A stretch of 63,961 nt of DNA from the NCBI RefSeq assembly GCF_004010195.1, contig NC_057740.1, forward strand, positions 6,902,999-6,966,959, in the 5' to 3' direction. Positions 8,071 through 63,735 of the stretch are shown here, in pieces. The stretch comes from Chiloscyllium plagiosum (lineage: Eukaryota). Made by a program: the position numbers and the translations under genes. How positions within the stretch are numbered: position 1 is the first letter of the stretch; the number at the start of each line of letters is the position of its first letter. Below the pieces are notes generated by a model. The model saw only the letters and a program-made list of their open reading frames with translations. It was not told the DNA's origin and did no database searches.

Positions 8071-8393
8071 TTAACAGCCGGATTGTGAGACTGTTGCGAT
8101 TGTTTCTGAAGCTGCTCCTTGTTGCACTGTGCAGGAGTACACCTTCCCACTGCTCCAATCACGGTCAGGGACGGTCAGGTAGCTGCTGAGACTGAAGCTG
8201 TTGTCCAGGTCACGGGACACCACGCTGGCTTGGACCTCACTGCTCGTCGGACTCCCATCCACTGTCCAGCTGACTACAGCAAAGCCCATGGACAGTTTGC
8301 TGACCAGACAAACTAATGTGCCTGCCCCTTTACTGGACATCATCTCATCTGAAGGCCCAAGCAGTTTTACTTAAGGGTCAGGGAGTTGCTGAG
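8071..8393 (-). pseudogene. Ig light chain C exon, cluster 1, pseudogene
   Basis: Near-identical to C2 but TCA>TAA stop at 8371-8373 (8th codon of the exon). Confidence 0.88.
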
Positions 8394-9901
8394 CTGCAAG
8401 AGAAAAGACAATGTTTGCATACAAAGTTAGCAAAGAATATAGCATCATTTCAGTTTAATAAGAACAGGTTTGAGATGTTGCAGCTTCCAGAATTGGGCCT
8501 CAGAAGGTTATTGTGGGAGTGAGGATCCCTCGATTAAGATTATTGAGATTTGTGACAATAGAAAGTACTAATTTTGATGTAAAAACAATTGTCCTGGTGA
8601 CTCTGAATGTCAGCATCATTCACTGTGGGGAATCCACTTCCGTCTCAATGGTTGTATATGGATCTGTGCTAAGTTGGTTGATCCTAAGTTGGTTCATCAG
8701 GGATACTGCTGTTGATCTCAATATCCGTGTTTGAAGGGTGAGGGATTCTGGAGATCATTGCTGATTGAAAGCCAATGATGATTCTGTGCTCCTTCAATGC
8801 CAGCCACAGGCATTCAGGAATAAATGTACCTCAATCTCTCCACAGCTCTGACTGAAAGCTCCAGGTGTGTGTGGTCCTGAGCTCTACAGACTAATGAGCA
8901 ACAGGACATGGAATGGTCTATGAGGATGCTCCAATTAGCCCATTCAAGGTGAGAAGAACAAAAGAACTTCTTGCTTGATCTTCAATGATCCTTTCTCCAG
9001 CTCAATACCTCCTCCTCCTCCCGCCCCCCCCCCCAATCTTTTTTCCCACAGAGTCCTCTGAATGGGGAAAGGCTGCTGGCAGTGTACACAATGCTGCAAC
9101 GTTAACTCCTGGCACAAGTTCAATGTCAACATGACATCCAGCAGCAGCTCACAGTGAGCGAGTGGTGAAGGCTCTGGTCTGAGGTGTCAGTACTGAAACT
9201 CAACATAAATCCGGCAAGCCCTTTCATTGTACTGTCACTCCTGCCATAGTCCAGCGACAGAGTGATTCGGGTCTGAGACCACCATCTCAGTGAATTCACC
9301 TCAGAACCTGAGCTCCAGCCTGAGAACGTGCAAAACCTAAATCAAAGCAACAAGTCTCCAAGGAGCAATGAGAGCAAAGGATAGCAATGAAGGAAAGGGA
9401 GCGGAGGGAGAGTTCCAGCATGTATTGGGAGAATGTGAGGAGGTGAAAACTAAAGGCCGAACAAATGAGGTACGAAGGGAGAATTATTTGGAAAATGCCT
9501 TAAATTCTTCCAATTTGGCCTTTGACCTAACACTTCCTTACGTGGTATGGTAACATTCAGTTTGATATTTCTACATGTACGTCCTGGGGACAGTTCTTCT
9601 ATATTAAAAAGGTGCCATATTAATACAAGTGATTACGTTGAGCGAGGTGGGACTTCCTTGCTCAAGGAGAAGGCAAGACACAAAATAAGCAATGGTATGG
9701 TCATCGTCAGAATCATTAGAAATTGAAGCTAGAGAATGAAAGAGTCCCTCGTGTGTATGTGACAAGAAAGTGCTCTTAAAGAAACTAGAAACATTAGATG
9801 GTTTGCAGCAAACAACCTGCCCCAGAAATGGAAAGGAGAAAAGCTGAGGAAGGATTGGAGATGGAACGTCTGAAGGCAAGAGAATTGTTGAAGGATCAAG
9901 T

Positions 9902-12900: not shown

Positions 12901-13612
12901 GCTAAGCGAGAGACAGTTTACATGTGGATGCCGCAGCCTCAGCACCTTTACCATCTGAAGAAAAGGAGCAATTTCTTCCATCATGCTCCGGGTGCGAGAG
13001 TCAGGCTGCATATCTGGGGCTGAGTCGGAGTAACTGGACCCGGTGGGTAAACGCCCCTAAAAACGGTATGAGAAAATGAACAAGTCTGTCCTGGACTGAG
13101 AGGGGGATGGATGTAATCATGGTTGACAGGTATAAACAGGAGTGTTCCCCCTCCAATTTTATTTTGATTTAATCCCTGACCTCGCCTTCACTGTTTGATC
13201 ACACAACATTGCCCTTTGATGTGAAGGGCCCTGCTTGTCACTGGCCACTCGGGTGTTTCTTTGCTTCCTGGTGGTGGAAACTGAATAAAGATTCGTGCAC
13301 CTTGTGTCTTTCATTGTGTCTTACACTTGCACACACACAACATGGGTGCTGGGGAATAAATAAGCACTACCACAGTTTAGTGTGGGGGTAAAAATTAAAA
13401 AAAAATAAACAGAAGTGTCAGAGATTCTGTTCACTCAGATGCTGCCTCTTGAGGAAGCTGGATCAGTTTGCGAAGGATCCTCCTTGTATCAAGAGAGAAA
13501 AAAAAATTAAACAGGAGTACCGGTTCTACTCTCCCACTTCACTTTGTTTTCCCCATTAGCATTTCCCCTATCGGGTTTTGCTTGTCACTGGTTCCCTGGC
13601 CACACGGGTGCC
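9902..13612 (+). mobile_element. Degenerate Gypsy (Ty3-like) LTR retrotransposon in the J1-C1 intron
   Basis: TG-start LTR at 9902; protease-like MEIDNGAAISV, RT/RNaseH remnants, ADALSRLP and GYVWWPG integrase zinc-finger-like motifs; PPT gagagggggatgga before the 3' LTR (~13112). Confidence 0.85.
13146..13507 (+). mobile_element. Poly(A)-tailed non-LTR-type insertion(s) in the Gypsy 3' LTR, cluster 1
   Basis: AATAAA and A-tails followed by repeats of the target taaacag(g/a)agt at 13133, 13406 and 13508. Confidence 0.65.
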
Positions 13613-13809
13613 TTGAACTAAGCTAATGTCAGAAACAGCACAAACTCAGGTAGCACCAAGAGTGATTGTTCTGCTTCTGCTGCGAGACTCTGGAGAAACA
13701 ACCAACATTTTCACTCAGGTTAAGAAATAGGCATGAGGAAATAATCAAGTTTCATCAAGTGTCGAAATTCACACAGTTAGTATCCACAGAGGAATTCCCA
13801 GCCACTTAC

Positions 13810-13846
13810 CTGCAAAAAAGAGCTTGGTCTCTTGCCCAAACACACA
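13810..13846 (-). pseudogene. Defective J segment, cluster 1 (CVFGQETKLFFA)
   Basis: FGQG changed to FGQE; RSS spacer disrupted; donor intact. Confidence 0.8.
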
Positions 13847-13911
13847 CACAGTGTGATGTTCTAGGTTCTGGATCAGTGGTGGAATTCTAGGGTTCAGTCC
13901 ATACAGTTATC
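13847..13911 (+). other. Disrupted J1 RSS (spacer 49 bp instead of 23)
   Basis: 26-bp insertion in the spacer relative to J2 and J3. Confidence 0.85.
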
Positions 13912-14215
13912 CAGGATCCTGGAATTGGAGAGAAAACACCTTCAGATACTCCATTCCCAGCATTGATCATGTATTCCCAGTGCCCCAGTTGGTGTGGGAC
14001 AGTAAGGAATAACCTCACAACAACATCCACACACTGACATTAAAATATCATCAACACTCAGTAGTGGGAATGATTCACAAAGTTACCAATTATGAAATAA
14101 CGGCAATTGGAAAATATTATACCCAAGAACAACATTAAAGTAATTTATGAATTCTTAAATATTAGAGTATTTGATCCAATACAATGATATTAGGAGGCCA
14201 TTATTTCCTGATATC

Positions 14216-14243
14216 AGTTTTTGTGTTACCTTCTGTCACTGTG
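14216..14243 (-). other. 12-RSS of V1
   Basis: CACAGTG-12-ACAAAAACT. Confidence 0.95.
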
Positions 14244-14570
14244 AGACATAAGCACTGGCCGAGCTAAACCACTTTTCACAGTAATACACGGCGGCATCAT
14301 TCACCTCCACGTTTTTGATGATTAACTGGTAAATGTTGTGGCCGCTGTTGGCTGTCGATGTGAAACGGTCGCTGCTAAACCCAGACCCATAGATAGGCGC
14401 ACTGCTCGAGTGATGGTAATAGAGGATCCACTGAGGAGCTGATCCTGGTGTCTGCTTGTACCAGCTCACAACATAGTTATCAGCCGTTCCAATGTTACAG
14501 TCCAGTGTGGCCTTGTTTCCCGGTTTCACAGTCAGGTGTGGAGGCTGAGTCAGAGTCTGACACTGTCCAT
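14244..14570 (-). CDS. Ig light chain V segment, cluster 1 (sigma-type), open frame
   Basis: V-set motifs intact; about 7 nt differences from V2. Confidence 0.9.
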
Positions 14571-14668
14571 CTGTAAAAGAGCAAGGATTAAACATCAGAA
14601 ATGGACCCTTGTAAAGGGGACTGTAAAACCCCGACCTGCTGCTGTGGAAGGAGCAGTGTTTTACTTAC

Positions 14669-14714
14669 AGCCCAGCCACACTGCCAGGGAACAGAAAAAG
14701 CACAAGATCCACAT
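14669..14714 (-). CDS. Ig light chain cluster 1 leader exon (MWILCFFCSLAVWLG)
   Basis: Paralogous to the cluster 2 leader. First ATG mutated to ATT, second ATG intact, GTAAGT donor. Confidence 0.85.
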
Positions 14715-14781
14715 AATTTCTGCCTGTCTTCAGCGACTGTATCTGGGACAGACTGTGGCAGCAGGTTCCCATTGAAGCCAG

Positions 14782-14821
14782 TTATAGAGCCCTTCACAAC
14801 AGGAAGGAAATCCGTGCAAAT
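14782..14821 (-). promoter_or_regulatory. V1 promoter: octamer variant plus TATAA
   Basis: ATTTGCAC at 14814-14821, TATAA at 14782-14786. Confidence 0.65.
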
Positions 14822-17003: not shown

Positions 17004-17009
17004 TAAGTA

Positions 17010-24071: not shown

Positions 24072-24077
24072 TTTATT
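24072..24077 (-). terminator. Probable poly(A) signal of C2
   Basis: AATAAA ~345 nt after the stop. Conserved in cluster 3 (55887-55892); AATGAA in cluster 1. Confidence 0.6.
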
Positions 24078-24420
24078 GGACATTACACTCAGCTACAATT
24101 ATTAATCGCCTGATGCTGTTGGCTGATCATGAACTCACATGAAAGCCAGCATGGGGTGTTGAGCACAGCACCCACATGAACTGAAATTCCTGACTGGAGC
24201 CAAGTCACTGGTCACTGAAACGTGAAATGGGAAACTGAGCAGAACCTGCCTCAGGTACAAACACTTCAAACATAATACAGCACAAACACGCAGAGCAAAA
24301 CAGGAACACAAAATGCAGCAGATTCCAGAGGAAGCGGGTTAAGTAATGGTGAAAGGGTGGAAGCTAAGTGTCATTTTCTGCCTAAATTAGACAGCAAACA
24401 CAGATGAAACTTCCAAATAT

Positions 24421-24743
24421 TTAACAGCCGGATTGAGAGACTGTTGCGGTTGTTTCTGAAGCTGCTCCTTGTTGCACTGTGCAGGAGTACACCTTCCCAC
24501 TGCTCCAATCACTGCCAGGGACGGTCAGGTAGCTGCTGAGACTGAAGCTGTTGTCCGGGTCACGGGACACCACGCTGGTTTGGACCTCACTGCTCGTCGG
24601 ACTCCCATCCACTGTCCAGCTGACCGCAGCAAAGCCCATGGACAGTTTGCTGACCAGACAAACTAATGTGCCTGCCCCTTTACTGGACATCTCCTCATCT
24701 GAAGGCCCAAGCAGTTTTACTGAAGGGTCAGGGAGTTGCTGAG
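24421..24743 (-). CDS. Ig light chain C exon, cluster 2, intact
   Basis: cttgcag acceptor; C1-set domain (GTLVCLVS, SWTVDG, SFSLSSYLTV, YSCTV) ending in the light-chain terminal Cys (SGC*). Confidence 0.93.
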
Positions 24744-27700
24744 CTGCAAGAGAAAAGACAATGTTTGCATACAAAGTTAGCAAAGAATATAGCATCATTT
24801 CAGTTTAATAAGAACAAGTTTGAGATGTTGCAGCTTCCAGAATTGGGCCTCAGAAGGTAATCATGGGAGTTAGCATCCCTCTGTTAAGACTGTTGAGGTT
24901 TGTGACAAAAGAAAGTCCTTAATTAGGATGTCAAACCAATTGTCCTGTGGATTAGAGCATCATTCACTGTGGGGAATTCACTTCCAACTCAATGGCTGTA
25001 CACAGGTCTGTGCTATGTTGGTTCATCCCAGGTAATGTATCAGGGACACTGCAGTTGGTCTCAGTGATCCCTGCCTCTGATCTTTGTTTTCAAATTCAAA
25101 ATCTGTTTTCTGTAGAACATCACTGGACCTGAAAATTAACTCTGCTTTCTCTACAGATGCTGCCAAATCTGCTGAGTTTTCCAGCAATTCCTGTTCTTCC
25201 CGAAAACCTATTGTGATGAGCTGTGACACTGAGTTTCATGGATTTGAGGGGAAGAAACAGTCAGCGTAAAGGAGAACCACACCTGGGAATTACAGCTCTG
25301 ACCTATCTTACCATATTCCTGTTAACCCACTCCCCATTCCTACATCACTGTGCCTCTTCAATGCCAACCTCTGGCATTTGGGAATAAAATTATCTCAAAC
25401 TCTCCACAGCTTTGACTGAAAGCTCCAGGTCGTGTGGTCCTGAGTTCTACAGACTAATGAGCAACAGGACATGGAATGGTCTGTGAGGATGCTCCAATTA
25501 GCCCATTCAAGGTGAGAAGAACAAAATAATTTCTTGCTTGATCTTCAATTATCCTTTCCCCAGCCTCAACACCACCTTTATTTCCCTCAGAGTCCTCCGA
25601 ATGAGGAAAGGCTGCTGGCAGTGTACACAATGCAGCAACGTTAACTCCTGGCACAGGTTCAATGTCAACATGATGTCCAGCAGCAGCTCAGTGAGCGAGT
25701 GGTAAAGGCTAGGGTATCAGTACTGAAACTCAACACAAACCCAGCAAGCCTTTTTACTGCACACTCACTCCTGCCACAGTCCGGCTAGAGTGATGGCTAC
25801 ACCATCTCAGTGAATTCACCTCAGAACCTGAGCTCCAGCCTCAGAACTTGCAAAACCTAAATCAAAGCAACAAGTCTCCAAGGAGCAATGAGAGCAAACG
25901 ATGGTAATGAAGGAAAGGGAGCGGAGGGAGAGTTCCAGCATGTATTGGGAGAATGTGAGGAGGTGAAAACCAACGGCTTGACAAATCACCTATGAAGAAA
26001 AAATTGTTTGTGAAATGGCTTAAATTCTATCAATTTGGCCTTTAATGTAATACTTCCTTTGGTGCTGAAGTAACATTTTGTTTGATAATTCTTTACGAAC
26101 ATCCTGGAACAGTTTTCTACTATATTAAAAAGGAGCCATATTAAAGCAAGAGATTGTGTTGAGAGAGGTGGGACTTCCTTGCTCAAGAAGGGAAGACACA
26201 ACATAAGCATCGTTATGGTCATCGTCAGATTCCTAAGAGATCGAGGAGAGAAGAATGAACTAGAGCTCCTAGGTGTGAGTGAGAGGAGACAGTGCTCTTA
26301 AGAAAGCTAGGAGTTTCAGTCGGCTTACAGCAAACATTGGTTTGCTCATCTGCACCAGAAATGGAAAGGAGAAAAGCCGAGGATGGATTGGAGGTGTAAC
26401 GCCTGACGGCAGGGGGGGAAAGAAAGTGTTGAAACCGGAAGTTGTAGTGATTGAAACCAAATCAGCCAGGTGAACCTCAGAGCATGAGTTCCCTTATTGA
26501 GGCTGTTAATCCGGTCTAATCAGAGAGAGTCCTGACGGACCGATACAGACAGGAGTGTTAGAGGTTCTGTTCACTCTGAGCTGGCTCGGAGGAAGCCGGA
26601 TCAGCCTCTCGCACTATGCAGCTGTAAATAAAGGCTGAGGTGATATAGGCCTCTGTGAAGTTATTTCAATGGCGACAAGACTGGGACTAATGATGTAACT
26701 GTGCAAAGGTGCCTGCTAGCTGAAGCCCAACTGGACTTCGAACAGGCACAACAACTGGCTGTGTCATTAGAAAATGCGACAAGTGGAGCGTAAGATTTAC
26801 AGGGTATGCCGATGGAAATGGAGCCCCTCCCCAGGCAGACTGAGCTTGTAGTATCGCCTCATTCAGGACATATCCTGAACCGGAGGACTCTAGGTCAAAC
26901 CACAGCAAAACCCTAAAACAAAGCCAAGCCTCAGCCAAGCAAGTGAACATTTTCCAGGGTCCTGGCCGGCAAGCCATTGTAGTTGCTGCCGGTGTGCAGG
27001 ACCGAGACAGCAACAGAGTCCCATTAGGCCTGAACTGAGTAAAGGAACTTGTAGGCTGGTGTTCAGGACAGTGTACATCCTAGAACACCCACTTGCATTG
27101 GTCTTGAAACAGTTAAATTGCGGAGCAACATCCAAATCACAATCAAAATAAATGTCTGGTTGAATGGTCACCTGGTTCTAATGGAGGTTGATACCAGCGT
27201 GGCTGTATCAGTGATTGCAGAACCAGTCTATAACAAACTTCACTCTGGACCCCAACCCTGAACTTTGCATAAGGCCTCGGCTAGACTGAGAACCTATACC
27301 GGGGAACCTTTACAGGTTAAGGGTACAACTTCGGTTCTGGTCTCATTTGATGTTGGAAATTGGTTGAAATAGATTCACCTTCATAGCCAACCATTTTCTA
27401 ATGGATAAATGTTGAGCCCAAGTAAAGTCCTAATTAAATCCTCGGGCACTTTTCAGGAAGGAATCGGGACTATCAAAGGAGCAAAGACCACCTTGCATGT
27501 TGACTGAGAAGTGATTCCATGATTCTGCAAGGCCTGTCCTTCCAGGCAAAAGTAGAGGCAGACATCAGGAGGCTGGAAGGCGAAGGAATAATCAAACCCA
27601 TACCGTTTATGGACTGGTCTGCACCAGTCACAAGGCCGAAAGCAGAGGAATGCCCAATCGTGTGTGCTTCCTGGACTGTGGCTAATGCAGAACACAAATA

Positions 27701-29336
27701 CACCCAGTCAAAGAAGGAAAGTGAGCAGTTATCTTTCCTGTGGGGAAGTTGCACCAATACCTTCGCTCATGTAACATTGTCATAGAAACTGACCCAGAAC
27801 CCTTGGTGGGGCTACTCAAAGAGGAGAAGGCAGTGCCACCCATAACTTCAGGTTGAATTCAGCATTGGGCTCTCAGGCGAAGTGCACCCAATTACAAGTT
27901 GGAACACCGTCCGGGAAGCCAAATAGAAAATGCGGATGCATTGAGCTGCCTCCCACCAGCAGATACACCAATGGTAGTGAGGCCACTGGAAGAGTCCGTT
28001 CTGGGTTTAAACTTTCCGGAGTCCCTTCCGGCCACCGCTACAAATTTCGGAATGTGGACACAAAAAGATCCCGTCCTGGCAAAACTATAACAGCTAGCGG
28101 CGATGGGGTAAAGATCAAAAGGGCCATCACAACCTGAACTGAATACTTTCCCGGACTCGGTGAGACCAGATCACCGAAGAGGATGGCATTTTATTATGGG
28201 GAGTGTGAGTGAGTATCCCACGCAAAGGACTCTATCAGTTCCTGGCTGAACTCCACCAGGATCATCCAGGGGAGTCCAAAGATGAAGATGTTGATGAGAG
28301 GTCATGTCTGGTGGCCAGGATTGGATGCAGGCATAGCCACGTTGGTGGGTCAGTGTGCAGGGTGCCAACAGGGATAAAAATTACCATCAGCAGCTGCAAA
28401 CATCTTTTGTAATACACAGACTCCCAGAAGTCTTGGTCACAGACAAGTCTTGGACACCAGATCAGCTGCTTACCATCCATTGTCCACTGGGCTGGTGGAA
28501 AGCCAGACCAAACTTTGAAGGCTAACTTTAAAAAAACAGCTTCCACTTTCACTCATTACCAAACTGCCCCAGCTCCTATTTGATTATCTGACCACCCTTC
28601 TGGCAGCTACGGAAATAGCTCCAACAGAGTTGCAATTGGGGAGAAGACTCCACACCAGGTTAAAGCTTATCCTCCCGGACCTGGGGAAAGGGGAGCAGGA
28701 AAGTGAAACAGTATCAGGAACATCAACACTGGACACAAGACTATGCCAGGCGAGAGAGAGACAGTTCACTTCAGAAGTCAAGGTTTGGTGCCAATATCAT
28801 GGAAGTGGACCTGCATGAGAAAGAGGCATGGCTGATGAGAGGTCAGGTCCTGTCATGTACAAAGTTCAAGTCAGTGAGCTGGTTCTGAACAAGCATGTGG
28901 ACCAGATGAAAGCTGCAAACTCACAAACATGACAGGGTCAAATACCTGGTCCCTTAGATCAGTCGGAAAGGCTACTGGAACCCGTAGCTTCACCCCCACC
29001 CCATCAGTCAGAGTCAGAGACAGACACGGTGGATGTTGCAGCCTCAGCACCTTTACCACCTGAAGAAAAGGAGCAATTTCTTCCAACACGCTCTGGGTGC
29101 GAGAGTCGGTCTGTGTATCCAAGGCTGCGTCGGAGTAACTGGACCCGGTGGGTAAACCCCACTACAGACGGTATGAGAAAACGAACAGGCCTCTGTCCCT
29201 GGACAGAGAGGGGGATGGATGTAATGATTGTGTTGGGGTCAGCTAGATGGCCCTCATAGAATACGAGTTTCCTTATCGATGCTGTTAATCTGGTCCAATT
29301 GGGGGACACTGGCTGATGGGTATAAATAGGAGTGCC

Positions 29337-29667
29337 TACAAATGTCATTATTACTGTCTTGTCATGTTTGAAACTGGGATTTGAAGTTCTTCATTTCCCT
29401 GTAAACTGGTTGAACAGTCGGGTTTGGGATCTGGCTTTGCTGCTCCTCTCCCTTGTAAAAGTGCTGTTTCTTTGTATACAGGTGTTAATGTTAATTATTT
29501 TGTTAACTGTGAATTGTTTAATAAAATGTAAAAAAAACAGGAGCGTTAAGACATCCTGGTCACTCAGAGCTGGCTCTGAGGGATCTGGATCAGTGTCAAG
29601 GACTCTCCATGTGTAAATGGACTGTGACGATGATGGGAAAAAGATAACATAAAATAAATAAAATTTT
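29337..29667 (+). mobile_element. Poly(A)-tailed insertion with transduced LTR segment, cluster 2
   Basis: Perfect 14-bp TSD taaataggagtgcc (29323-29336 and 29668-29681). Confidence 0.7.
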
Positions 29668-29681
29668 TAAATAGGAGTGCC

Positions 29682-29950
29682 AGACCCACCCTCCCACTTC
29701 ATATTGAATTCCCTAGATAAGCATTTTCCCCTATTGGGCTTTGCTTGTCATTGGTTCCCTGGCCACTTGGGTGCCTTTTCCTGGTGGTGGAGAGATTGAA
29801 TACAATTATTTGCACAAAGGGGTCTTCACTGAGTCCCTGCCCTTACACAACATGGATGCTGTGGAGAAAAAATAAGCGCGACTACGGTGTTGCTGTATTG
29901 TGTGTGTGTGTGTGTATACCAAAAATAAATACATAAATAAGCAAACAACC
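29682..29950 (+). mobile_element. Older 5'-truncated non-LTR 3' end inserted at the same LTR site
   Basis: A-rich tail then the target caggagtgtca; start shared with cluster 1 (13519-13612) and cluster 3. Confidence 0.6.
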
Positions 29951-30839
29951 AACCAGGAGTGTCACAGGTTCTATTCACTATTAGCTGGCTGTGAGGAGAC
30001 TGGATCAGTGTCATGTACTATGCACGTGTATATACAGGACAACTTTATGACGGGATACTGGCCTCTGTCGAGCTATTTCAGAAATCAAGATAACAAGAGG
30101 TTCCAGTTCAGTGCAAAAATAAAAAAGCACAGACAAAGTTATCAATAGGCTTTAAAATTGAGAGAGGACTAGAGCAAAGAAATACTGACTCAGGAACTAA
30201 ACTAGTATTTTCCTGAGTACTGCATTAGCAATGCTTGGTTTCTGAGAATGATTGCTTCTGATATTTCTGTCAACATTAATAATGGGTTATGTGTAGGCAC
30301 ATTGCTACTCAACTAAAAAGCAATGACAAAGCTTCAATTAATTAATTCACCATGAAATGCTTTGGGGCATTAAAAACAAAATTAAAATTAGAAAACATAT
30401 CAATGAAGTTTCTTTCTTTCGATTTAACTCAGTGCAGCTAATATTGAATATTTTAAACAAAACCAACAGAACTAAATTTAACTGTTCCCAACATTGCACT
30501 TTATAAGCCTTGAAAAAAATTAGACCACATACTCAAATATGAGTCACCACCAAATATATTAACAAATGTACAGCATGCTAAAAAGAGTTTGTAAAATCAA
30601 AGCACTTATGAACAAAAACATGATATACAAAACTATGAACTAACAGCCAATGTCAGAAACAGCACAAACTCAGACAGGCAGCACCAAGAGTGATTGCTCT
30701 GCTTCTGCTGCTAGACTCTGGAGAAACAACCAACATTTTCACTCAGGTTAAGAAATAGGCATGAGGAAATAATCAAGTTTCAATCAAGTGCCGAAATTCA
30801 CACAGTTAGTATCCACAGAGGGAATTCTCAGCCACTTAC

Positions 30840-30876
30840 CTGCAACAAAGAGCTTGGTCCCTTGCCCAAACACACA
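30840..30876 (-). CDS. Ig light chain J segment, cluster 2 (CVFGQGTKLFVA)
   Basis: FGxG motif, adjacent heptamer, phase-1 GTAAGT donor. Confidence 0.93.
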
Positions 30877-30915
30877 CACAGTGTGATGTTCTAGGGTTCA
30901 GCCCACACAGTTATC
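30877..30915 (+). other. 23-bp-spacer RSS of J2 (non-consensus nonamer)
   Basis: CACAGTG-23 nt-ACAGTTATC abutting the J coding end. Confidence 0.8.
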
Positions 30916-31220
30916 CAGGATCCTGGAAATGGAGAGAAAACACCTTCAGATACTCCAGTGCCAGCATTGATCATGTATTCCCAGTGCCCCAGTTGGTGTG
31001 GGACAGTAAGGAATAACCTCACAACAACATCCACACACTGACATTAAAATGTCATCAACACTCAGTAGTGGGCAATGATTCAGAAAGTTACCAATTATGA
31101 AATAACGGCAATTGGAAAATATTATACCCAAGAACATCATTAAAGTAATTTATGAAGTCTTAAATATTAGAGTATTTGATCCAGTACAATGATATTAGGA
31201 GGCCATTATTTCCTGATATC

Positions 31221-31248
31221 AGTTTTTGTGTTACCTTCTGTCACTGTG
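31221..31248 (-). other. 12-bp-spacer RSS of V2
   Basis: CACAGTG-acagaaggtaac(12)-ACAAAAACT. Confidence 0.95.
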
Positions 31249-31575
31249 AGACATAAGCACTGGCCGAGCTAAACCACTTTTCACAGTAATACACGGCGGC
31301 ATCATTCACCTCCACGTTTTTGATGATTAACTGGTAAATGTTGTGGCCGCTGTTGGCTGTCGATGTGAAACGGTCGCTGCTAAACCCAGACCCATAGGTC
31401 GGCGCACTGCTCGAGTGATGGTAATAGAGGATCCACTGAGGAGCTGATCCTGGTGTCTGCTTGTACCAGTACACATAATAGCTATCAGCCGTTCCAATGT
31501 TACAGTCCAGTGTGGCCTTGTTTCCCGGTTTCACAGTCAGGTGTGGAGGCTGAGTCAGAGTCTGACACTGTCCAT
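31249..31575 (-). CDS. Ig light chain V segment, cluster 2 (sigma-type), intact
   Basis: tttacag acceptor; V-set motifs LDC, WYKQTPG, DAAVYYC. The long CDR2 YYHHSSSAPTYGSGFSSDRF resembles sigma (Xenopus sigma / teleost L2-like). Ends at the RSS heptamer. Confidence 0.93.
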
Positions 31576-31673
31576 CTGTAAAAGAGCAAGGATTAAACAT
31601 CAGAAATGGACCCTTGTAAAGGGGACTGTAAAACCCCGACCTGCTGCTGTGGGAGGAGCAGTGTTTTACTTAC

Positions 31674-31722
31674 AGCCCAGCCACACTGCCAGGGAACAGA
31701 GAAAGCACAAGATCCACATCAT
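31674..31722 (-). CDS. Ig light chain cluster 2 leader exon (MMWILCFLCSLAVWLG)
   Basis: ATG, hydrophobic signal peptide and phase-1 GTAAGT donor. Splices in frame to the V exon giving ...WLGYGQC/QTLTQP. Confidence 0.9.
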
Positions 31723-31797
31723 TTCTGCCAGTGAGCTGCCTGCCTTCAGCGACTGTATCTGGGACAGACTGTGGCAGCAGGTTCCCATTGAAGCCAG

Positions 31798-31837
31798 TTA
31801 TAGAGCCCTTCACAACAGGAAGGAAATCCGTGCAAAT
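31798..31837 (-). promoter_or_regulatory. V2 promoter: octamer variant ATTTGCAC plus TATAA
   Basis: Octamer-like element ~110 nt upstream of the ATG, TATAA ~30 nt downstream of it; identical in all three clusters. Confidence 0.7.
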
Positions 31838-53030: not shown

Positions 53031-53400
53031 ATTTAAACTTTAACAGTCATTTTATATTGACATTTAAATTATTTATTAATATCACTTATATGCCCAAATA
53101 CTATATGAGGGTTGTATGATATAATAAAATGTTGTCATTGGATTATCTTCTTCCTATGTCGCATAATAATGAATCAATTCTTTAAATATTAGTCTTGGCT
53201 CAGCAGGAGCACATTGATTTAAACTTTAACAGTCATTTTATATTGACATTTAAATTATTTATTAATATCACTTATATGCCCAAATACTATGAGGGTTGTA
53301 TGATATAATAAAATGTTGTCATTGGATTATCTTCTTCCTATGTTGCATAATAATGAATCAATTCTTTAAATATTAGTCTTGGCTCAGCAGGAGCACATTG
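53031..53400. repeat. Tandem duplication of an AT-rich ~185-bp unit
   Basis: 53031-53216 and 53217-53400 nearly identical. Confidence 0.9.
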
Positions 53401-54235: not shown

Positions 54236-55949
54236 TTTTAAATACATTCAATATCCCAACATTCCCTCTCTGCTGCATCATTTCTCCAGCTTCTCTCCTC
54301 TGTATTATTCTCCAATTTCTGTACTCAACAGTGCATGGCACTACGTGTTAACCAGAGATTGCTACCCTTGAGGTACTTCTTATTTAATCCTTTGCTTGCT
54401 AAAGTATGTCTGGAGGACATTTCTGTATCTGACGATGTCATTCCCACTATGCTGGGACATGACCTCTAGCAGTTCACCCGCCCTCTCTCAGAATGCAGCT
54501 GCTCAGTGGCATTCTTGACATGGGACCAAACAGACAAAGTACCATCATTAAATCAGGGCTAGGGGCAAAGAAAAGCTTGTCTGTTTTCCTAACTCATGAA
54601 ATACATATCATTAACTCTTTCGAGCCTTCTGTACAAACCCTGTACACTGAAGCATGTTCTGGCCCTGGTTACGCTCCCCAAAGGAATAACAAAACAAAAA
54701 GGACTGCGGTGATGTCAACATGTAACTGAACCGATGACAATTCCTGCACATCTGATTGTCCAAGTCACCCCATGGGATTAGCAGCTCAGTTAAGAGGACA
54801 CGTGCTCACCCTGAAGTTCTGGGTATAAATCCCACATCAGAATTCGAACCCCAAAACATGGCTGCTGCTCGACTACAACACTGAGGGTGTGCTGCTTTGT
54901 TGGAAGTGCTATCCTGCACTTGCATTACTGGGAGGCTGCAATTGCCTGTTTGGATGAATTCAACAAAATTCCTTGTCCACATCACAGGAAATGTTCCTGT
55001 ATGTCGCAAAACTCAATGGGACTGAGTTGCTCCACCATCTATTTATTGGACTCATATCTAAACACCACACATTGTATGTCCCTCCAGAGAAATTAATATA
55101 ACTTTTTCCTTTCAATGTTACCACATTCCTAAGTTGAACAAGTCTTGAATGTTGCATTTTCCCAATCCCCTTGTGAAAGTCTGCGTAAAAACATTGAATG
55201 AATTTCCTTTTCTCTTCATCACGTACTTTTGCACTTTTCAATCGAGATACATATTTATGAATGTATTCTGGTCATCCTAAGAAGTCCCTGTCTCCAGGTG
55301 CACATTAATCCATCCTGCATGTCACATTGAGAAGTTTCTTCTGCTGCTGTTAAACTGTCCGGTCTGTCATTGCCAAGATTATTTCTTTATGAACTCAATG
55401 TTAGAGTGGCAACTCTCCAGGTGACTGATCCAACTCTCATACCCAAGCTCTTCTGGGATGAAAAGAAATCAAATCAGAACTGGCGGGGCGGGGGAGGGGA
55501 AAAGAAGTACAGAAGCTTTTTAAAATTATTCCATGTGCGTGTGAACACCACATGCTAGGCCAGCATTTATTTCACATCTCTAACTGCTCTTGAGAAGGTA
55601 TCGATGAACTCCCTTCTTGAACTGCTATTTACTGTTCAACTCACTATTCTGTGGAATGGAATTCCAGGAACAGTGCAATAATTTCCAAGTCAGGATATGG
55701 TAATGGTGTGCCCATGCTTTTGTTGCTATTTTTTCCTCCAAAATTCAGTAAAAGTCACAAATTTGGAATATCATTTTGAAAGTGTCTTGGGGAGTAGATG
55801 CCATACATTGTGTAGATGCAGTGAGAGAGGACGAGAAACCACACAAGTTGACAAAATACACGGAAGGATTTCCTGCACAGATTCTTTTTATTGGACATTA
55901 AACTCAGCAACAATTATTACTCGCCTGATGCTGTTGGCTGATCATGAAC

Positions 55950-56170
55950 TCACATGAAATCCAGCATGGGGTGTTGAGCACAGCACCCACATGAACTGAA
56001 ATTCCTGACTGGAGCCAAGTCACTGGTCACTGATACGTGAAATGAGAAACTGAACAGAACCTGCCTCAGGTACAAACACTTCAAACATAATACAGCACAA
56101 ACACACAGAGCAAAACAGGAACACAAAATGCAGCAGATTCCAGAGGAAGAGGGGACAGGGAGTTGCTGAG
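55950..56170 (-). pseudogene. C exon remnant of cluster 3: C domain deleted, acceptor fused in frame to the 3'UTR
   Basis: Acceptor and AQQLP retained, then the sequence jumps (~56153) to UTR. About 390 bp corresponding to 24339-24727 is missing. Confidence 0.85.
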
Positions 56171-58139
56171 CTGCAAGAGAAAAGACAATGTTTGCATACA
56201 AAGTTAGCAAAGAATATAGCAGCATTTCAGTTTAATAAGAACAGGTTTGAGATGTTGCAGCTTCCAGAATTGAGCCTCAAATTTATCGTGGGAGTTAGCA
56301 TCCCCCTGTTAAGACTGTTGAGGTTTGTGACAATAGAAAGTACTAATTCGGATGTCAAACCAATTGTCCTGTGGATTAGAGCATCATTCACTGTGGGGAA
56401 TTCACTTCCAACTCAATGGCTGTACACAGGTCTGTGCTATGTTGGTTCATCCCAGGTAATGTATCAGGGACACTGCAGTTGGTCTCAGTGATCCCTGCCT
56501 CTGATCTTTGCTTTCAAGTTCAAAATCTGTTTTCTGTAGAACATCACTGGACCTGAAAATTAACTCTGCTTTCTCTACACATGCTGCCAAATCTGCTGAG
56601 TTTTCCAGCAATTCCTGTTCTTCCTGAAAACCTATTGTGATGAGCTGTGACACTGAGCTTCATGGATTTGAGAGGAACAAACAAACAGTCAGCGTAAAGG
56701 AGAACCACATCTGGGAATTACTCCCCATTCCTTCATCACTGTGCCTCTTCAATGCCAACCTCTGGCATTTGGGAATAAAATTATCTCAAACTCTCCACAG
56801 CTTTGACTGAAAGCTCCAGGTCGTGTGGTCCTGAGTTCTACAGACCAATGAGCAACAGGACATGGAATGGTCTGTGAGGATGCTACAATTAGCCCATTCA
56901 AGGTGAGAAGAACAAAATAATTTCTTGCTTGATCTTCAATGATCCTTTCCCCAGCCTCAACACCACCTTTATTTCCCTCAGAGTCCTCTGAATGAGGAAA
57001 GGCTGCTGGCAGTGTACACAATGCAGCAACGTTAACTCCTGGCACAGGTTCAATGTCAACATGATGTCCAGCAGCAGCTCAGTGAGCGAGTGATAAAGGT
57101 TGGGGTATCAGTACTGAAACTCAACACAAACCCAGCAAGCCCTTTTACTGCACACTCACTCCTGCCACAGTCCGGCTAGAGTGATGGCTACACCATCTCA
57201 GTGAATTCACCTCAGAACCTGAGCTCCACCCTCAGAACATGCAAAACCTAAATCAAAGCAACAAGTCTCCAAGGAACAATGAGAGCAAACGATGGTAATG
57301 AAGGAAAGGGAGCGGAGGGAGAGTTCCAGCATGTATTGGGAGAATGTGAGGAGGTGAAAACCAATGGCTTGACAAATTACCAATGAAGAAAAAATTGTTT
57401 GTGAAATGGCTTAAATTCTATCAATTTGGCCTTTAATGTAATACTTCCTTCGGTGCTGAAGTAACGTTTTGTTTGATAATTCTTTACGAACATCCTGGAA
57501 CAGTTTTCTACTATATTAAAAAGGAGCCATATTAAAACAAGAGATTGTGTTGAGAGAGGTGGGCCTTCCTTGCTCAAGGAGAAGGGAAGACACAACATAA
57601 GCATCGTTATGGTCATCGTCAGATTCCTAAGAGATTGAGGAGAGAAGAATGAACTAGAGCTCCTAGTGTGAGTGAGAGGAGACAGTGCTCTTAAGAAAGC
57701 TAGGAATTTCAGTCGGCTTACAGCAAACATTGGTTTGCTCATCTGCACCAGAAATGGAAAGGAGAAAAGCCGAGGATGGATTGGAGATGTAACGTCTGAC
57801 AGCAAGGGGGGAAAAGAAAGTGTTGAAACCGGAAGTTGTAATGATTAAAACGAAATCAGCCATGTGAACCTCAGAGCATGAGTTCCCTTATTGAGGCTGT
57901 TAATCCGGTCTAATCAGAGAGAGTCCTGACGGACCGATACAAACAGGAGTGTCAGAGGTTCTGTTCACTCTGAGCTGGCTCGGAGGAAGCCGGATCAGCT
58001 TCTCGCACTGTGCAGCTGTAAATAAAGGCTGAGGTGATATAGGCCTCTGTGAAGTTATTTCAATGGAGACAAGACTGGGACTAATGATGTAACCATGCAA
58101 AGGTGCCTGCTAGCTGAAGCCCAACTGGACTTCGAACAG

Positions 58140-58669
58140 ATTCTGGATTAGTGGTGCTGGAAGAGCACAGCAGTTCAGGCAGCATCTGCGGAGCAGTAAA
58201 AATCGATGTTTCGGGCAAAAGCCCTTCATCAGAAATAAAGGCAGAGAGCCTGAAGCGTGGAGAGATAAGTGAGAGGAGGNNNNNNNNNNNNNNNNNNNNN
58301 NNNNNNNNNNNNNNNNNNNNNNNNNNNNNNNNNNNNNNNNNNNNNNNNNNNNNNNNNNNNNNNNNNNNNNNNNNNNNNNNNNNNNNNNNNNNNNNNNNNN
58401 NNNNNNNNNNNNNNNNNNNNNNNNNNNNNNNNNNNNNNNNNNNNNNNNNNNNNNNNNNNNNNNNNNNNNNNNNNNNNNNNNNNNNNNNNNNNNNNNNNNN
58501 NNNNNNNNNNNNNNNGCAACGGATACAATAAATGATATTAGTGGATGTGCAGGTAAAACTTTGATGGATGTGGAAGGCTCCTTTAGGACCTTGGATGGAG
58601 GTGAGGGAGGAGGTGTGGGCGCAGGTTTTGCAGCTCCTGCGGTGGCAGGGGAAGGTGCCAGGATGGGAG
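58140..58669 (-). mobile_element. Penelope-like element fragment (GIY-YIG-adjacent region plus terminal repeat) inserted into the cluster 3 Gypsy
   Basis: Minus-strand translation GTFPCHRRSCKTC...FTCTSTNIIYCIRC; 13-bp TSD-like ggacttc(g/a)aacag; absent from cluster 2; spans a gap. Confidence 0.75.
58280..58515. other. Assembly gap (N run)
   Basis: N run. Confidence 1.
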
Positions 58670-60205
58670 GGACTTCAAACAGGCACAACAACTGGCTGTG
58701 TCATTAGAAAATGCGACAAGTGGAACATAAGAGTTACAGGGTATGCCGATGGAAATGGAGCCCCTCTGCAGGCAGACTGAGCTTGTAGTATCGCCTCATT
58801 CAGGACATATCCTGAACCGGAGGACTCTAGGTCAAACCACAGCAAAACCCTAAAACAAAGCCAAGCCTCAGCCAAGCAAGTGAACATTTTCCAGGGTCCA
58901 GGCCGGCAAGCCATTGTAGTTGCTGCCGGTGTGCAGGATCGAGACAGCAACAGAGTCCCACTAGGCCTGAACTGAGTAAAGGAACTTGTAGGCTGGTGTC
59001 CAGGACAATGTACATCCTAGAACGCCCACTTGCATTGGTCTTGAAACAGTTAAATTGCGGAGCAACATCCAAATCACAATCAAAATAAATGTCTGGTTGA
59101 ATGGTCACCTGGTTCTAATGGAGGTTGATACCAGCGTGGCTGTATCAGTGATTGCAGAACCAGTCTATAACAAACTTCACTCTGGACCCCAACCCTGAAC
59201 TTTGCATAAGGCCTCGGCTAGACTGAGAACCTATACCGGGGAACCTTTACAGGTTAAGGGTACAACTTCGGTTCTGGTCTCATTTGATGTTGGGAAATTG
59301 GTTGAAAAAGATTCACCTTCATAGCCAACCATTTTCTATTGGATAAATGTTGAGCCCAAGTAAAGTCCTAATTAAATCCACAAGCGCTTTTCAGGAAAGA
59401 ATCGGGACTACCAAAGGAGCAAAGACCACCTTGCATGTTGACTGGGAAGTGATTCCATGATTCTGCAAGGCCTGTCCTTCCAGGCAAAAGTAGAGGCAGA
59501 CATCACGAGGCTGGAAAGCGAAGGAATAATCAAACCCATACCGTTTATGGACTGGTCTGCACCAGTCACAAGGCCCAAAGCAGAGGAATGGCTTATCGCG
59601 TGTGCTTCCTGGACTGCGGCTAATGCAGAACACAAATACTCCCAGACAAATAAGTGAGCAGTTATATTTCCTGTGGGGAAGTTGCACCAATACCTTCGCT
59701 CATGTAACATTGTCATAGAAACTGACCACCAACCCCCGGTGGGGCTACTCAAAGAGGAGAAGGCAGTGCCACCCATAACTTCAGGTTTAATTCAGCATTG
59801 GGCTCTCAGGCGAAGTGCACCCAATTACAAGTTGGAACACCGTCCGGGAAGCCAAGTAGAAAATGTGGATGCATTGAGCTGCCTCCCACCAGCAGATACA
59901 CCAATGGTAGGGAGGCCACTGGAAGAGTCCGTTCTGAGTTTAAACTTTCCGGAGTCCCTTCCGGCCACCGCTACAAATATCGGAATGTGGACACAAAAAC
60001 AACCCGTCCTGGCAAAACTATAACAGCTGGCAGCGATGGGAGAAAAGATCAAAAGAGCCATCACAACCTGAACTGAATACTTTCCCGGACTCGGTGAGAC
60101 CAGATCACTATAGAGGAAGGCATTTTATTACGGGGAGTGTGAGGAAGTGTCCCACGCAAAGGACTCTATCAGTTCCTGGCTGAACTCCACCAGGATCATC
60201 CAGGG

Positions 60206-60256
60206 GCCGAATGGCCTTACTTCCACTCCTATGTCTTATGGTCTTATGGTCTTATG
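60206..60256 (+). mobile_element. Tiny 3' end of a CR1-like LINE (tcttatgg tail), cluster 3-specific
   Basis: Absent from the cluster 2 paralog; reverse complement of the CR1 tail at ~32260-32305. Confidence 0.65.
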
Positions 60257-61695
60257 GGAGTCCAAAGATGAAGATGTTGATGAGAGGTCATGTCTGGTGG
60301 CCAGGATTGGATGCAGGCATAGCCACGTTGGTGGGTCAGTGTGCAGTGTGCCAACAGGGATAAAAATTACCATCAGCAGCAAATATCTTTTGTAATACAC
60401 AGACTCCCAGAAGTCTTGGTCACAGACAAGTCTTGGACACCAGATCAGCTGCTTACCATCCATTGTCCACTGGGCTGGTGGAAAGCCAGACCAAACTTTG
60501 AAGGCTAACTTTAAAAAAACAGCTTCCACTTTCACTCATTACCAAACTGCCCCAGCTCCTATTTGATTATCTGACCATCCTTCTGGCAGCTACAGAAATA
60601 GCTCCAACAGAGTTGCAATTGGGGAGAAGACTCCACACCAGGTTAAAGCTTATCCTCCTGGACCTGGGGAAGGGGGAGCAGGAAAGTGAAACAGCAGCAG
60701 GAACATCAACACTGGACACAAGACTATGCCAGGCGAGAGAGAGACAGTTTACTTCAGAAGTCAAGGTTTGGTGCCAATATCATGGAAGTGGACCTGCATG
60801 AGAAAGAGGCATGGCTGATGAGAGGTCAGGTCCTGTCATGTACAAAGTTCAAGTCAGTGAGCTGGTTCTGAACAAGCATGTGGACCAGATGAAAGCTGCA
60901 AACTCACAAACATGACAGGGTCAAATACCTGGTCCCTTAGATCAGTCGGAAAGGCTACTGGAACCCGTAGCTTCACCCCCACCCCATCTGTCAGAGTCAG
61001 AGACAGACACGGTGGATGTTGCAGCCTCAGCACCTTTACCACCTGAAGAAAAGGAGCAATTTCTTCCAACACGCTCTGGGTGCGAGAGTCGGTCTGTGTA
61101 TCCAAGGCTGCGTCGGAGTAACTGGACCCGGTGGGTAAACCCCACTACAGACGGTATGAGAAAACGAACAGGCCTCTGTCCCTGGACAGAGAGGGGGATG
61201 GATGTAATGATTGTGTTGGGGTCAGCTAGATGGCCCTCATAGAATACGAGTTTCCTTATCGATGCTGTTAATCTGGTCCAATTGGGGGACACTGGCTGAT
61301 GGGTATAAATAGGAGTGCCTACAAATGTCATTATTACTGTCTTGTCATGTTTGAAACTGGGATTTGAAGTTCTTCATTTCCCTGTAAACTGGTTGAACAG
61401 TCGGGTTTGGGATCTGGCTTTGCTGCTCCTCTCCCTTGTAAAAGTGCTGTTTCTTTGTATACAGGTGTTAATGTTAATTATTTTGTTAACTGTGAATTGT
61501 TTAATAAAATGTAAAAAAAACAGGAGCGTTAAGACATCCTGGTCACTCAGAGCTGGCTCTGAGGGATCTGGATCAGTGTCAAGGACTCTCCATGTGTAAA
61601 TGGACTGTGACGATGATGGGAAAAAGATAACATAAAATAAATAAAATTTTTAAATAGGAGTGCCAGCCCCACCCTCCCACTTCATATTGAATTCC

Positions 61696-61843
61696 NNNNN
61701 NNNNNNNNNNNNNNNNNNNNNNNNNNNNNNNNNNNNNNNNNNNNNNNNNNNNNNNNNNNNNNNNNNNNNNNNNNNNNNNNNNNNNNNNNNNNNNNNNNNN
61801 NNNNNNNNNNNNNNNNNNNNNNNNNNNNNNNNNNNNNNNNNNN
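61696..61843. other. Assembly gap (N run)
   Basis: N run. Confidence 1.
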
Positions 61844-62733
61844 CACAGGTTGTATTCACTATTAGCTGGCTGTGAGGAGACTGGATCAGTGTCATGTACT
61901 ATGCACGTGTATATACAGGACAACTTTATGACGGGATACTGGCCTCTGTCGAGTTATTTCAGAAATCAAGATAACAAGAGGTTCCAGTTCAATGCAAAAA
62001 TAAAAAAGCACAGACAAAGTTATCAATAGGCTTTAAAATTGAGAGAGAGGACTAGAGCAAAGAAATACTGACTCAGGAACTAAACTAGCATTTTACTGAG
62101 TACTGCATTAGCAATGCTAGGTTTCTGAGAATGATTGCTTCTGATATTTCTGTCAACATTAATAATGGGTTATGTGTACGCACATTGCTACTCAACTAAA
62201 AAGCAATGACAAAGCTTCAATTAATTAATTCACCATGAAATGCTTTGGGGCATTAAAAACAAAATTAAAATTAGAAAACATATCAATGAAGTTTCTTTCT
62301 TTCGATTTAACTCAGTGCAGCTAATATTGAACATTTTAAACAAAACCAACAGAACTAAATTTAACTGTTCCCAACATTGCACTTTATAAGCCTTGAAAAA
62401 AATTAGACCACATACTCAAATATGTGTCACCACCAAATACATTAACAATATATTGCAATGCTAAAAAGCTAAAAAAAGTTTGTAAAATCAAAGTACTTAT
62501 GAACAAAAACATTATGATGTACAAAACTATGAACTAACACCCAATGTCAGAAACAGCACAAACTCAGACAGGCAGCACCAAGAGTGATTGCTCTGCTTCT
62601 GCTGCTAGACTCTGGAGAAACAACCAACATTTTCACTCAGATTAAGAAATAGGCATGAGGAAATAATCAAGTTTCAATCAAGTGCCTAAATTCACACAGT
62701 TAGTATCCACAGAGGGAATTCTCAGCCACTTAC

Positions 62734-62770
62734 CTGCAACAAAGAGCTTGGTCCCTTGCCCAAACACACA
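62734..62770 (-). CDS. Ig light chain J segment, cluster 3 (CVFGQGTKLFVA)
   Basis: Identical to J2; donor intact. Confidence 0.92.
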
Positions 62771-62809
62771 CACAGTGTGATGTTCTAGGGTTCAGTCCAT
62801 ACAGTTATC
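62771..62809 (+). other. 23-RSS of J3 (non-consensus nonamer)
   Basis: CACAGTG-23-ACAGTTATC. Confidence 0.8.
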
Positions 62810-63114
62810 CAGGAACCTGGAAATGGAGAGAAAACACCTTCAGATACTCCAGTGCCAGCATTGATCATGTATTCTCAGTGCCCCAGTTGGTGTGGGACAG
62901 TAAGGAATAACCTCACAACAACATCCACACACTGACATTAAAATGTCATCAACACTCAGTAGTGGGCAATGATTCACAAAGTTACCAATTATGAAATAAC
63001 GGCAATTGGAAAATAATATACCCAAGAACATCATTAAAGTAATTTATGAAGTCTTAAATATTAGAGTATTTGATCCAGTACAATGATATTAGGAGGCCAT
63101 TATTTCCTGATATC

Positions 63115-63142
63115 AGTTTTTGTGTTACCTTCTGTCACTGTG
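63115..63142 (-). other. 12-RSS of V3
   Basis: CACAGTG-12-ACAAAAACT. Confidence 0.95.
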
Positions 63143-63469
63143 AGACAAAAGCACTGGCCGAGCTAACCCACTTTCCACAGTAATACACGGCGGCATCATT
63201 CACCTCCACGTTTTTGATGATTAACTGGTAAATGTTGTGGCCGCTGTTGGCTGTCGATGTGAAACGGTCGCTGCTAAACCCAGACCCATAGGTAGGCGCA
63301 CTGTGCGAGTGATAGTAATAGAGGATCCACTGAGGAGCTGATCCTGGTGTCTGCTTGTACCAGTACACGTTATAGTTATCAACCGTTCCAATGTTACAGT
63401 CCAGTGTGGCCTTGTTTCCCGGTTTCACAGTCAGGTGTGAAGGCTGAGTCAGAGTCTGACACTGTCCAT
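63143..63469 (-). CDS. Ig light chain V segment, cluster 3 (sigma-type), open frame
   Basis: V-set motifs intact; differs from V2 mainly in the CDRs. Confidence 0.92.
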
Positions 63470-63567: not shown

Positions 63568-63616
63568 AGCCCAGCCACACTGCCAGGGAACAGAGAAAGC
63601 ACAAGATCCACATCAT
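63568..63616 (-). CDS. Ig light chain cluster 3 leader exon
   Basis: MMWILCFLCSLAVWLG, GTAAGT donor. Confidence 0.88.
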
Positions 63617-63695: not shown

Positions 63696-63735
63696 TTATA
63701 GAGCCTTTCACAACAGGAAGGAAATCCGTGCAAAT
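63696..63735 (-). promoter_or_regulatory. V3 promoter: octamer variant plus TATAA
   Basis: ATTTGCAC at 63728-63735, TATAA at 63696-63700. Confidence 0.65.

Follow-up and report, generated by a model that had tools for sequence, protein, structure and literature searches.

The window, a stretch of 63,961 nucleotides of Chiloscyllium plagiosum DNA, holds three tandem Ig sigma light-chain V-J-C units, all on the minus strand, which became apparent when the window was compared with itself (Table 1). Each of the three clusters contains an octamer, a leader, a V segment, a 12-RSS, a 23-RSS, a J segment and a C acceptor, and the cluster bodies are 83-97% alike. In the available portions of two reports (PMC4279169, PMC5192425), shark light chains are described as lying in single V-J-C clusters of four isotypes, and pseudogene clusters are described among shark Ig clusters.

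Cluster 2 is intact, and we used it as the reference for defining the lesion in cluster 3. Its V is 100% identical to the annotated C. plagiosum protein XP_043576842.1, and the three isoforms that match this cluster (XP_043576842-4) differ from one another solely at the V-J junction. A functional light chain has a C1-set domain that ends in an interchain Cys; cluster 2 carries both, its C domain being recognized by Pfam, and C2 is 91.5% identical to nurse shark sigma. Cluster 1, which served as the outgroup for comparisons of clusters 2 and 3, is damaged: its C exon reads AQQLPDP and then stops at a TAA, and the J nonamer is displaced by an insertion of 26 nt. The idea that clusters 2 and 3 are two haplotypes of one locus is unlikely, as the spacers compared for this question (15-21 kb and 33-46 kb) are 80-89% alike with no N gap between.

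Table 1. Positions of the three clusters and of the parts of cluster 3 within the window.
Feature	Position	Strand	Remarks
Cluster 1, damaged paralogue	7739..14821	-	TAA early in C; insertion in J-RSS spacer
Cluster 2, intact sigma V-J-C gene	24072..31837	-	C coding 24424-24743
Cluster 3 AATAAA	55887..55892	-	57 nt past stop
Former 3'UTR read in frame	55950..56153	-	up to TGA 55952-55950
T/TG-rich block encoding hydrophobic Cys-rich 20-mer	56082..56141	-	
Deletion junction, TC (2 nt) in place of 390 nt	56154..56155	-	cluster 2 equivalent 24728-24339
C exon remnant, 15 nt	56156..56170	-	AQQLP, including G from J
J-C intron	56171..62733	-	N gaps 58280-58515 and 61696-61843
J3 segment CVFGQGTKLFVA	62734..62770	-	phase 1; GT donor
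J3 RSS: nonamer GATAACTGT, 23-nt spacer, CACTGTG	62771..62809	-	
V3 RSS: CACAGTG, 12-nt spacer, ACAAAAACT	63115..63142	-	
V3 exon, sigma type	63143..63469	-	open frame; germline (unrearranged)
Leader exon	63568..63616	-	phase 1; GT donor intact
Promoter octamer ATTTGCAC	63728..63735	-	identical in clusters 1 and 2

A preliminary description of this DNA held that the promoter, leader, V3, RSS and J3 of cluster 3 are as intact as their counterparts in cluster 2, and the octamer, leader, V, V-RSS, J and donor do match. The J3 nonamer is non-consensus but identical to that of cluster 2. V3 matches the Pfam V-set model (1.5e-18) and is 92% identical to the C. punctatum and 85% identical to the nurse shark immunoglobulin sigma light chain; a PDB search with this V returned generic antibody V domains only. 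With a sigma-type V, a leader, an octamer and split V and J segments flanked by 12/23 RSS, cluster 3 is by V, RSS and layout a member of the sigma family, and it is a damaged Ig cluster.

The deletion and the frame that it opens

The acceptor of the cluster 3 C exon is intact and in phase with J3, as had been proposed: the AG at 56172-56171 is unchanged, clusters 1 and 2 share its pyrimidine tract and branch-point-like TGCTAAC, and J3 ends in phase 1. Beyond the acceptor, cluster 3 keeps five residues of C, AQQLP alone, and has neither the C1-set domain nor the terminal Cys. The 390 nt lost take in the remainder of C with its stop codon and the proximal UTR, for a net deletion of 388 nt relative to cluster 2; within the window, the missing segment is present in clusters 1 and 2 only.

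The deletion itself is present in the assembled sequence, but the clean join at GAAG/GGG microhomology that was first suggested for its ends does not, because 390 nt have given way to the two letters TC. The ends share at most CCCT (4 nt), and a join at that shared CCCT would be one base shorter. The junction looks like the product of break repair with a small insertion. Exitron or intron-loss origins were rejected, as the deleted segment neither begins with GT nor ends in AG; the first GT lies 23 nt into the C exon.

An assembly or consensus error, with the C exon of cluster 3 in reality intact, would also account for the missing segment. The region is of draft quality: N gaps lie at distances of 2.1 kb and 5.5 kb from the junction, and the three paralogues are highly similar. 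Against such an error, the junction sits in contiguous, N-free sequence, both of its flanks can be told from cluster 2 by their sequence, the two junction bases come from neither flank by simple overlap, and the homology is just 4 nt; the junction would thus fit break repair better than repeat collapse. Other samples bear on this question as well and are described below.

Past AQQLP, the frame continues into the former 3'UTR. We recomputed the tail, and the numbers agree with those reported before: A plus 72 aa, or 73 aa, with 11 Cys; a 20-residue hydrophobic run followed by K/R; and an AATAAA about 60 nt after the stop (57 nt as measured). The layout is a 10-aa stalk, the hydrophobic run at residues 11-30, in which 7 of the 11 Cys fall, and a 43-aa remainder with K31 and R36. 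The best 19-mer of the run scores 2.93 on the KD and 2.32 on the GES hydropathy scale, so that on these scales the tail has the hydrophobic segment of at least 19 residues with basic residues that is expected of a type I VJ receptor. A single-sequence fold model gives one helix at residues 8-39 at low confidence (mean pLDDT 52). Membrane receptors commonly signal through a Tyr motif or a charged TM residue; the cluster 3 tail has no YxxPhi or other tyrosine signalling motif and no charged residue in the TM run.

The hydrophobic run derives from a T/TG-rich block; the 66 nt at 56075-56140 contain 34 T, 7 A and 15 TG, and T makes up 39% of the tail against 21% of the C exon. All nine UTR frames (three frames in each of three clusters) have a TM-like best 19-mer, with KD values of 2.24-2.93, and the frame reached by the deletion is the longest and most hydrophobic of its three (KD 2.93). 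Among 17,917 random read-ins across the window, 1.8% were TM-like and 0.48% were TM-like and at least 68 aa long. The tail is thus unusual relative to random sites in the window, but its TM-like property predates the deletion and was already present in the UTR.

We simulated deletions in cluster 2 with the left break 3-60 nt into C, counting a tail as TM-like at KD >= 1.8. When the right break fell after the C stop but before the T-rich block (n=5,858), 39.5% reached this value, 11.7% were also at least 60 aa long, and 6.8% were TM-like with K/R after. For right breaks near the real one (n=2,610) the figures were 81.9% TM-like, 25.8% also long and 15.3% with K/R after, and for right breaks anywhere in the UTR (n=18,154) they were 17.6% TM-like and 5.5% both long and TM-like. 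When the 66-nt block was shuffled with its dinucleotides preserved, 37% of 5,000 shuffles stayed open; 89% of the open ones had KD >= 1.8 and 6.4% reached 2.9, and they held 4.4 Cys on average, with at least seven in 10.7%. Mononucleotide shuffles that stayed open reached KD 1.8 in 46% and 2.9 in 0.7% of cases, a stricter outcome indicating that the TG repeats matter. The frame reached lies at the favourable end of the shuffle distribution, and the TM-like look is explained by the base composition of the T/TG-rich UTR.

Such a source, T-rich and non-coding with a prior propensity for TM segments, is what de novo, TM-first emergence presupposes. U-rich or T-rich non-coding sequence tends to encode TM-like tails that are often degraded, according to the accessible parts of two studies (PMC7005711; 10.1101/2022.07.20.500724), the first of which describes TM-first gene emergence from T-rich sequence in yeast. 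A general caution follows for T/TG-rich UTRs: they yield TM-like tails in any frame, and TM predictions on such read-throughs carry little information.

Conservation of the tail and the diversity of V3

Cluster 2 has the same tail frame open, as non-coding UTR; in cluster 1 it is shifted and broken. Clusters 2 and 3 differ at six positions in this frame, four of them changes in cluster 2; these include the Arg/Cys difference in the hydrophobic run, which we assign to cluster 2 because cluster 1 carries the cluster 3 letter. Conservation in relatives had been put forward as a check on the tail, and protein databases searched at lengths of 39-126 aa and 127-2000 aa returned no homologue, a weak negative, as are the absence of a Pfam match and of an Atlas match. 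Neither paralogues nor relatives, then, showed protein-level conservation of the TM or cytoplasmic parts. The annotated sigma proteins that we examined from C. punctatum (n=3) and Hemiscyllium (n=3) all have a full C domain. A literature search, thin on subscription papers, turned up neither this allele nor a natural light chain with a TM segment.

These results bear on the most ambitious reading of the locus, in which selection has acted on cluster 3 as a heavy-chain-independent, single-V receptor, diversified by RAG and held in the membrane by a Cys-rich, UTR-derived anchor. If true, it would be a new antigen-receptor architecture at its birth, still segregating as an allele. The in-frame type I membrane topology is in its favour, and sharks do have single-V or VJ-TM molecules (IgNAR, NARTCR and UrIg2, in the available part of PMC12227049). 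V3 adds a further point, since it differs from V2 by nine non-synonymous codons and only one synonymous codon. We nevertheless regard this reading as very improbable. It has no homologue, the six sigma proteins of related sharks retain C, the tail has neither YxxPhi nor a charged TM residue, its letters are common to undeleted copies and so reveal no adaptive change after the deletion, and it is not seen among the contigs listed for three other samples.

The diversity of V3 likewise offers little help. V3 had been singled out for the most diversified CDRs, which is misleading, as V3 is the V nearest to those of C. punctatum and the nurse shark. In a 100-residue comparison with two C. punctatum sigma chains, V3 mismatches at 6-7 positions, V2 at 10 and V1 at 13; with nurse shark sigma the mismatches number 14 for V3, 16 for V2 and 18 for V1. 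The two C. punctatum chains carry the V3 residue at five and six of the nine non-synonymous sites. Because the V3 residues are mostly common to related sharks, the CDR argument for function fails. The V3 differences show that the V was once functional and under CDR selection; they are silent on the period after the deletion.

Cluster 3 in other samples

At least 20 sequencing runs contain part of 55860-56170, the best of them 0.86 of 28 words; none of those listed is on record as RNA, which speaks neither way. From 24 runs listed, we compared four (X1, X5, X12 and X24) with 55700-63961, and public contig sets were available for the first three. X24, raw single-cell RNA of which about 6% was read, gave 0 reads on 55700-63961 and is no test.

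X1, which is DNA-like, has a 622-nt contig (depth 30) that matches 55700-56153 except at five letters, against 20 for cluster 2; it carries the cluster 3 UTR letters at most diagnostic sites, and the two letters past 56153 do not fit. The deletion path would be expected to break a contig at 56149 or 56153. In X12, from organism B, one contig matches cluster 3 letter for letter over 56120-56153 before two non-fitting letters, another continues into undeleted UTR, and three listed pieces explain the entire depth of the bin (8.39); a spliced V-J contig from this sample continues into an intact C. The V-J joint of X5 has a depth of 617, which marks the sample as RNA-like. Its V-J contig is V2-type, with the ten differences expected of V2, and continues without a break for another 294 letters, presumably C. 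Compared with cluster 3, the UTR contig of X5 (depth 1245) has 1 different letter in 281, and that of X12 has 1 in 227. An abundant X5 contig ends at 55869 with six unaligned letters, an end consistent with use of the AATAAA.

Splices from J3 to 56170 had been named as the expected trace of a V-J-TM product, and we sought them in the contigs of X1, X5 and X12. No J-to-56170 joint is among the joints listed, the weakest of which has a depth of about 83, and no contig among the pieces listed for these samples bridges the deletion junction. The V-J contigs of X5 and X12 are of V2 or V1 type and extend uninterrupted beyond the site at which a transcript joining J to the tail would diverge, with no V3-type or J-to-tail contig among those listed. 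Contigs drop rare variants and cannot prove absence, depth is not copy number, the animals may not carry the allele, and depth outside the listed pieces amounts to about 2,100 depth-bases in the X1 bin and about 12,000-13,000 in the X5 bin.

Two points follow from the UTR contigs. Because those of X5 and X12 are nearly identical to cluster 3, the tail has hardly changed since the deletion. As UTR of the cluster 3 type adjoins undeleted sequence in other samples, the deletion seems not to be fixed. The same joins, together with the lack of a listed bridging contig in three samples, also speak for an assembly error; weighed with the features of the junction described above, we consider such an error unlikely.

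A further possibility is that the deletion is real and that some B cells display a stable membrane V-J-tail protein as a neutral by-product, at a proto-gene stage. All cis elements are intact, the stop lies in the last exon 57 nt before AATAAA, and a signal peptide, a 10-aa stalk, a 20-aa hydrophobic run and K/R are in place, with the modelled helix, of low confidence, at residues 8-39; the TM-first emergence described in yeast (PMC7005711, in part) is a precedent. No J-to-56170 joint is listed at depths down to about 83, against 617 for the V2-type joint of X5, though these animals may lack the allele. Many Cys and an unpaired VL make ER retention likely, and the tail has 11 Cys, seven of them in the TM run. 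A stable surface product of this kind is, in our estimation, distinctly unlikely. Should a carrier prove to display the V-J-tail protein, the locus would matter much more: a light chain would have become a membrane-bound single-V receptor in a single step, and the origin of such receptors would have a testable model.

A probable young null allele and its relation to known systems

We favor the reading, with a probability of about 0.72, that cluster 3 is a null allele, very young and unfixed, and that its membrane-like tail arose as a by-product of the T/TG-rich 3'UTR; in effect, it is likely a rearrangeable pseudogene. The preliminary description had held out a membrane-anchored single-V light chain, with a young pseudogene as the fallback, and the fallback is the better supported branch. 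Nothing that we found positively supports the membrane-anchored chain as a real product, because the tail has no homologue and no Pfam match, its TM look is explained by composition, its frame is broken in cluster 1, it has no tyrosine motif, and no junction-bridging or J-to-tail contig is listed in three samples. What speaks against the null allele is that everything upstream of C is intact and that stalk, TM run and basic residues come in the correct order. So do the high KD of the frame reached, the lack of any run or listed piece that confirms the junction, and the existence of conserved truncated sigma-like genes in sturgeons.

The history of the allele may be pictured as follows. A DNA break, repaired by end joining with CCCT homology and two extra bases, would have removed C from a cluster 3 with a UTR already of the present sequence. 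In carriers, cluster 3 would still rearrange and splice to the tail exon; rearrangement is likely because clusters 2 and 3 have the same RSS heptamers and nonamers. A stop codon in the last exon permits escape from NMD, and the V3-J3-tail mRNA, with its stop so placed, would likely escape. As a protein, L-V-J-tail would be delivered to the ER, where the hydrophobic run may insert into the membrane or act as a stop-transfer segment. In mammalian Ig, CL is needed to fold CH1 and release BiP; a chain with no CL and no terminal Cys would probably fail to pair with a heavy chain and would form no B-cell receptor. Retention or degradation of the chain would follow, and the carrier cell would have to rely on another light-chain cluster. 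The rearrangement step is not guaranteed, as pseudogene rearrangement at nurse shark IgH was not seen on Southern blots in the available portion of that report (PMC2435157).

The closest relatives of cluster 3 are the Ig sigma (type IV) miniclusters of cartilaginous fish, such as nurse shark ABO64184.1, which share the split V-J-C layout, the octamer and the 12/23 RSS; unlike them, cluster 3 keeps only five C residues and reads into the 3'UTR. Pseudogene clusters in the nurse shark include one of four sigma-2 loci and three IgM loci (PMC5192425, in the part available). Like these shark pseudogene miniclusters and like cluster 1, cluster 3 is a decaying tandem cassette duplicate, but it was damaged by a single deletion, after which the frame stays open and the mRNA would likely escape NMD. 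If it is a null allele, it illustrates on a small scale how shark Ig miniclusters undergo birth-and-death and exchange sequence.

UrIg2 and other shark VJ membrane proteins resemble cluster 3 in placing a VJ unit N-terminal to TM and cytoplasmic regions. UrIg2, as presented in the accessible text of PMC12227049, is non-rearranging, has nine C1 domains in the nurse shark and is present across species; the cluster 3 tail, in contrast, is unevolved UTR that shows neither conservation nor a signalling feature. The translated, hydrophobic non-coding tails discussed in the available parts of 10.1101/2022.07.20.500724 and PMC7005711 have the same U-rich, in-frame origin as that of cluster 3, which differs in sitting on a signal-peptide V domain and in having been reached by genomic deletion. 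The BAG6 work covers cytosolic tails and not signal-peptide proteins such as L-V-J-tail, and ER quality control rather than BAG6 would likely handle the cluster 3 product.

Sigma-type genes that lack one domain, as cluster 3 does, are also known from the sturgeon. As far as the available part of the report goes (PMC5985310), the sigma-like IgL4 locus there gives V-only products and V-less JC products, and the truncated genes are transcribed, conserved across Acipenseriformes including paddlefish, and presumably secreted. In the same account the sturgeon genes are without functional RSS, whereas cluster 3 keeps its RSS and has a UTR-derived tail with no conservation. The sturgeon genes show that sigma genes can be retained in truncated form.

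Duplication history and the state of cluster 1

In self-comparison, clusters 1 and 2, two of the three tandem sigma light-chain miniclusters, have upstream spacers that are 80-89% alike (15080-18824 against 33900-35712 and 43852-46029), and clusters 2 and 3 are mostly 90-97% alike over their bodies. From these identities we infer an older tandem duplication that was homogenised later. A stretch of approximately 186 nt within 53031-53400 is also duplicated head-to-tail at 98.4% identity, representing either a recent duplication or an assembly artefact.

Cluster 1 (7739-14821, minus strand) looks pseudogenised, because its sequence carries an early stop, a 26-nt insertion in the J-RSS spacer, a J that reads FGQETK, and a polyadenylation signal changed from AATAAA to AATGAA, and has lost the first ATG.

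The J-C intron of cluster 3 contains, within 56739-61214, stretches common to all three clusters (75-96% in self-comparison), several of which have very high contig depth in other samples, and so these stretches are repeat-derived. Elsewhere in the window, two ORFs carry LINE-type endonuclease domains, the second scoring below the curated cut-off.

Features of the light-chain clusters and neighbouring ORFs
Feature	Position	Strand	Remark
J-RSS nonamer GATAACTGT, cluster 3	62801-62809	-	
J-RSS nonamer GATAACTGT, cluster 2	30907-30915	-	
Early stop TAA, cluster 1	8373-8371	-	
V3 exon	63143-63469	-	near-identical frameworks, two CDR motif sets (all V exons)
V2 exon	31249-31575	-	
V1 exon	14244-14570	-	
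LINE-type endonuclease ORF	32602-33648	-	domains of the two ORFs: PF03372, PF14529
LINE-type endonuclease ORF	40585-41082	+	second match below curated cut-off

Rearrangement and mixed contigs in other samples

The J-RSS nonamer of clusters 2 and 3 agrees with the consensus at only five of nine places; despite this poor match, V-J joints of V2 type are abundant in the RNA-like run X5. When compared with window positions 55700-58132, contigs from X5, the DNA-like X1 and X12 (which has a spliced V-J-C contig) combine letters of clusters 2 and 3. The main forms in X5 are a V of V2 type and a UTR of cluster-3 type. In X1, one V differs from V3 at 15 places. The mixed letters and the divergent X1 V suggest gene conversion or structural polymorphism, or else collapsed contigs.

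V segments compared with other shark sigma chains

At 63440 (minus strand), V3 framework 1 has Ser in place of Pro. Of 16 further sigma chains from sharks that were tabulated, 13 carry Pro at this site, three carry Ala and none carries Ser; the substitution is possibly a private, mildly damaging change. Where V2 and V3 differ, Carcharodon and S. canicula sigma chains have the V2 residue at seven of nine sites and two C. punctatum chains have the V3 residue at five to six, the last site being unreliable in rearranged sequences. The two CDR motif sets may be old balanced CDR types, or may reflect convergence.
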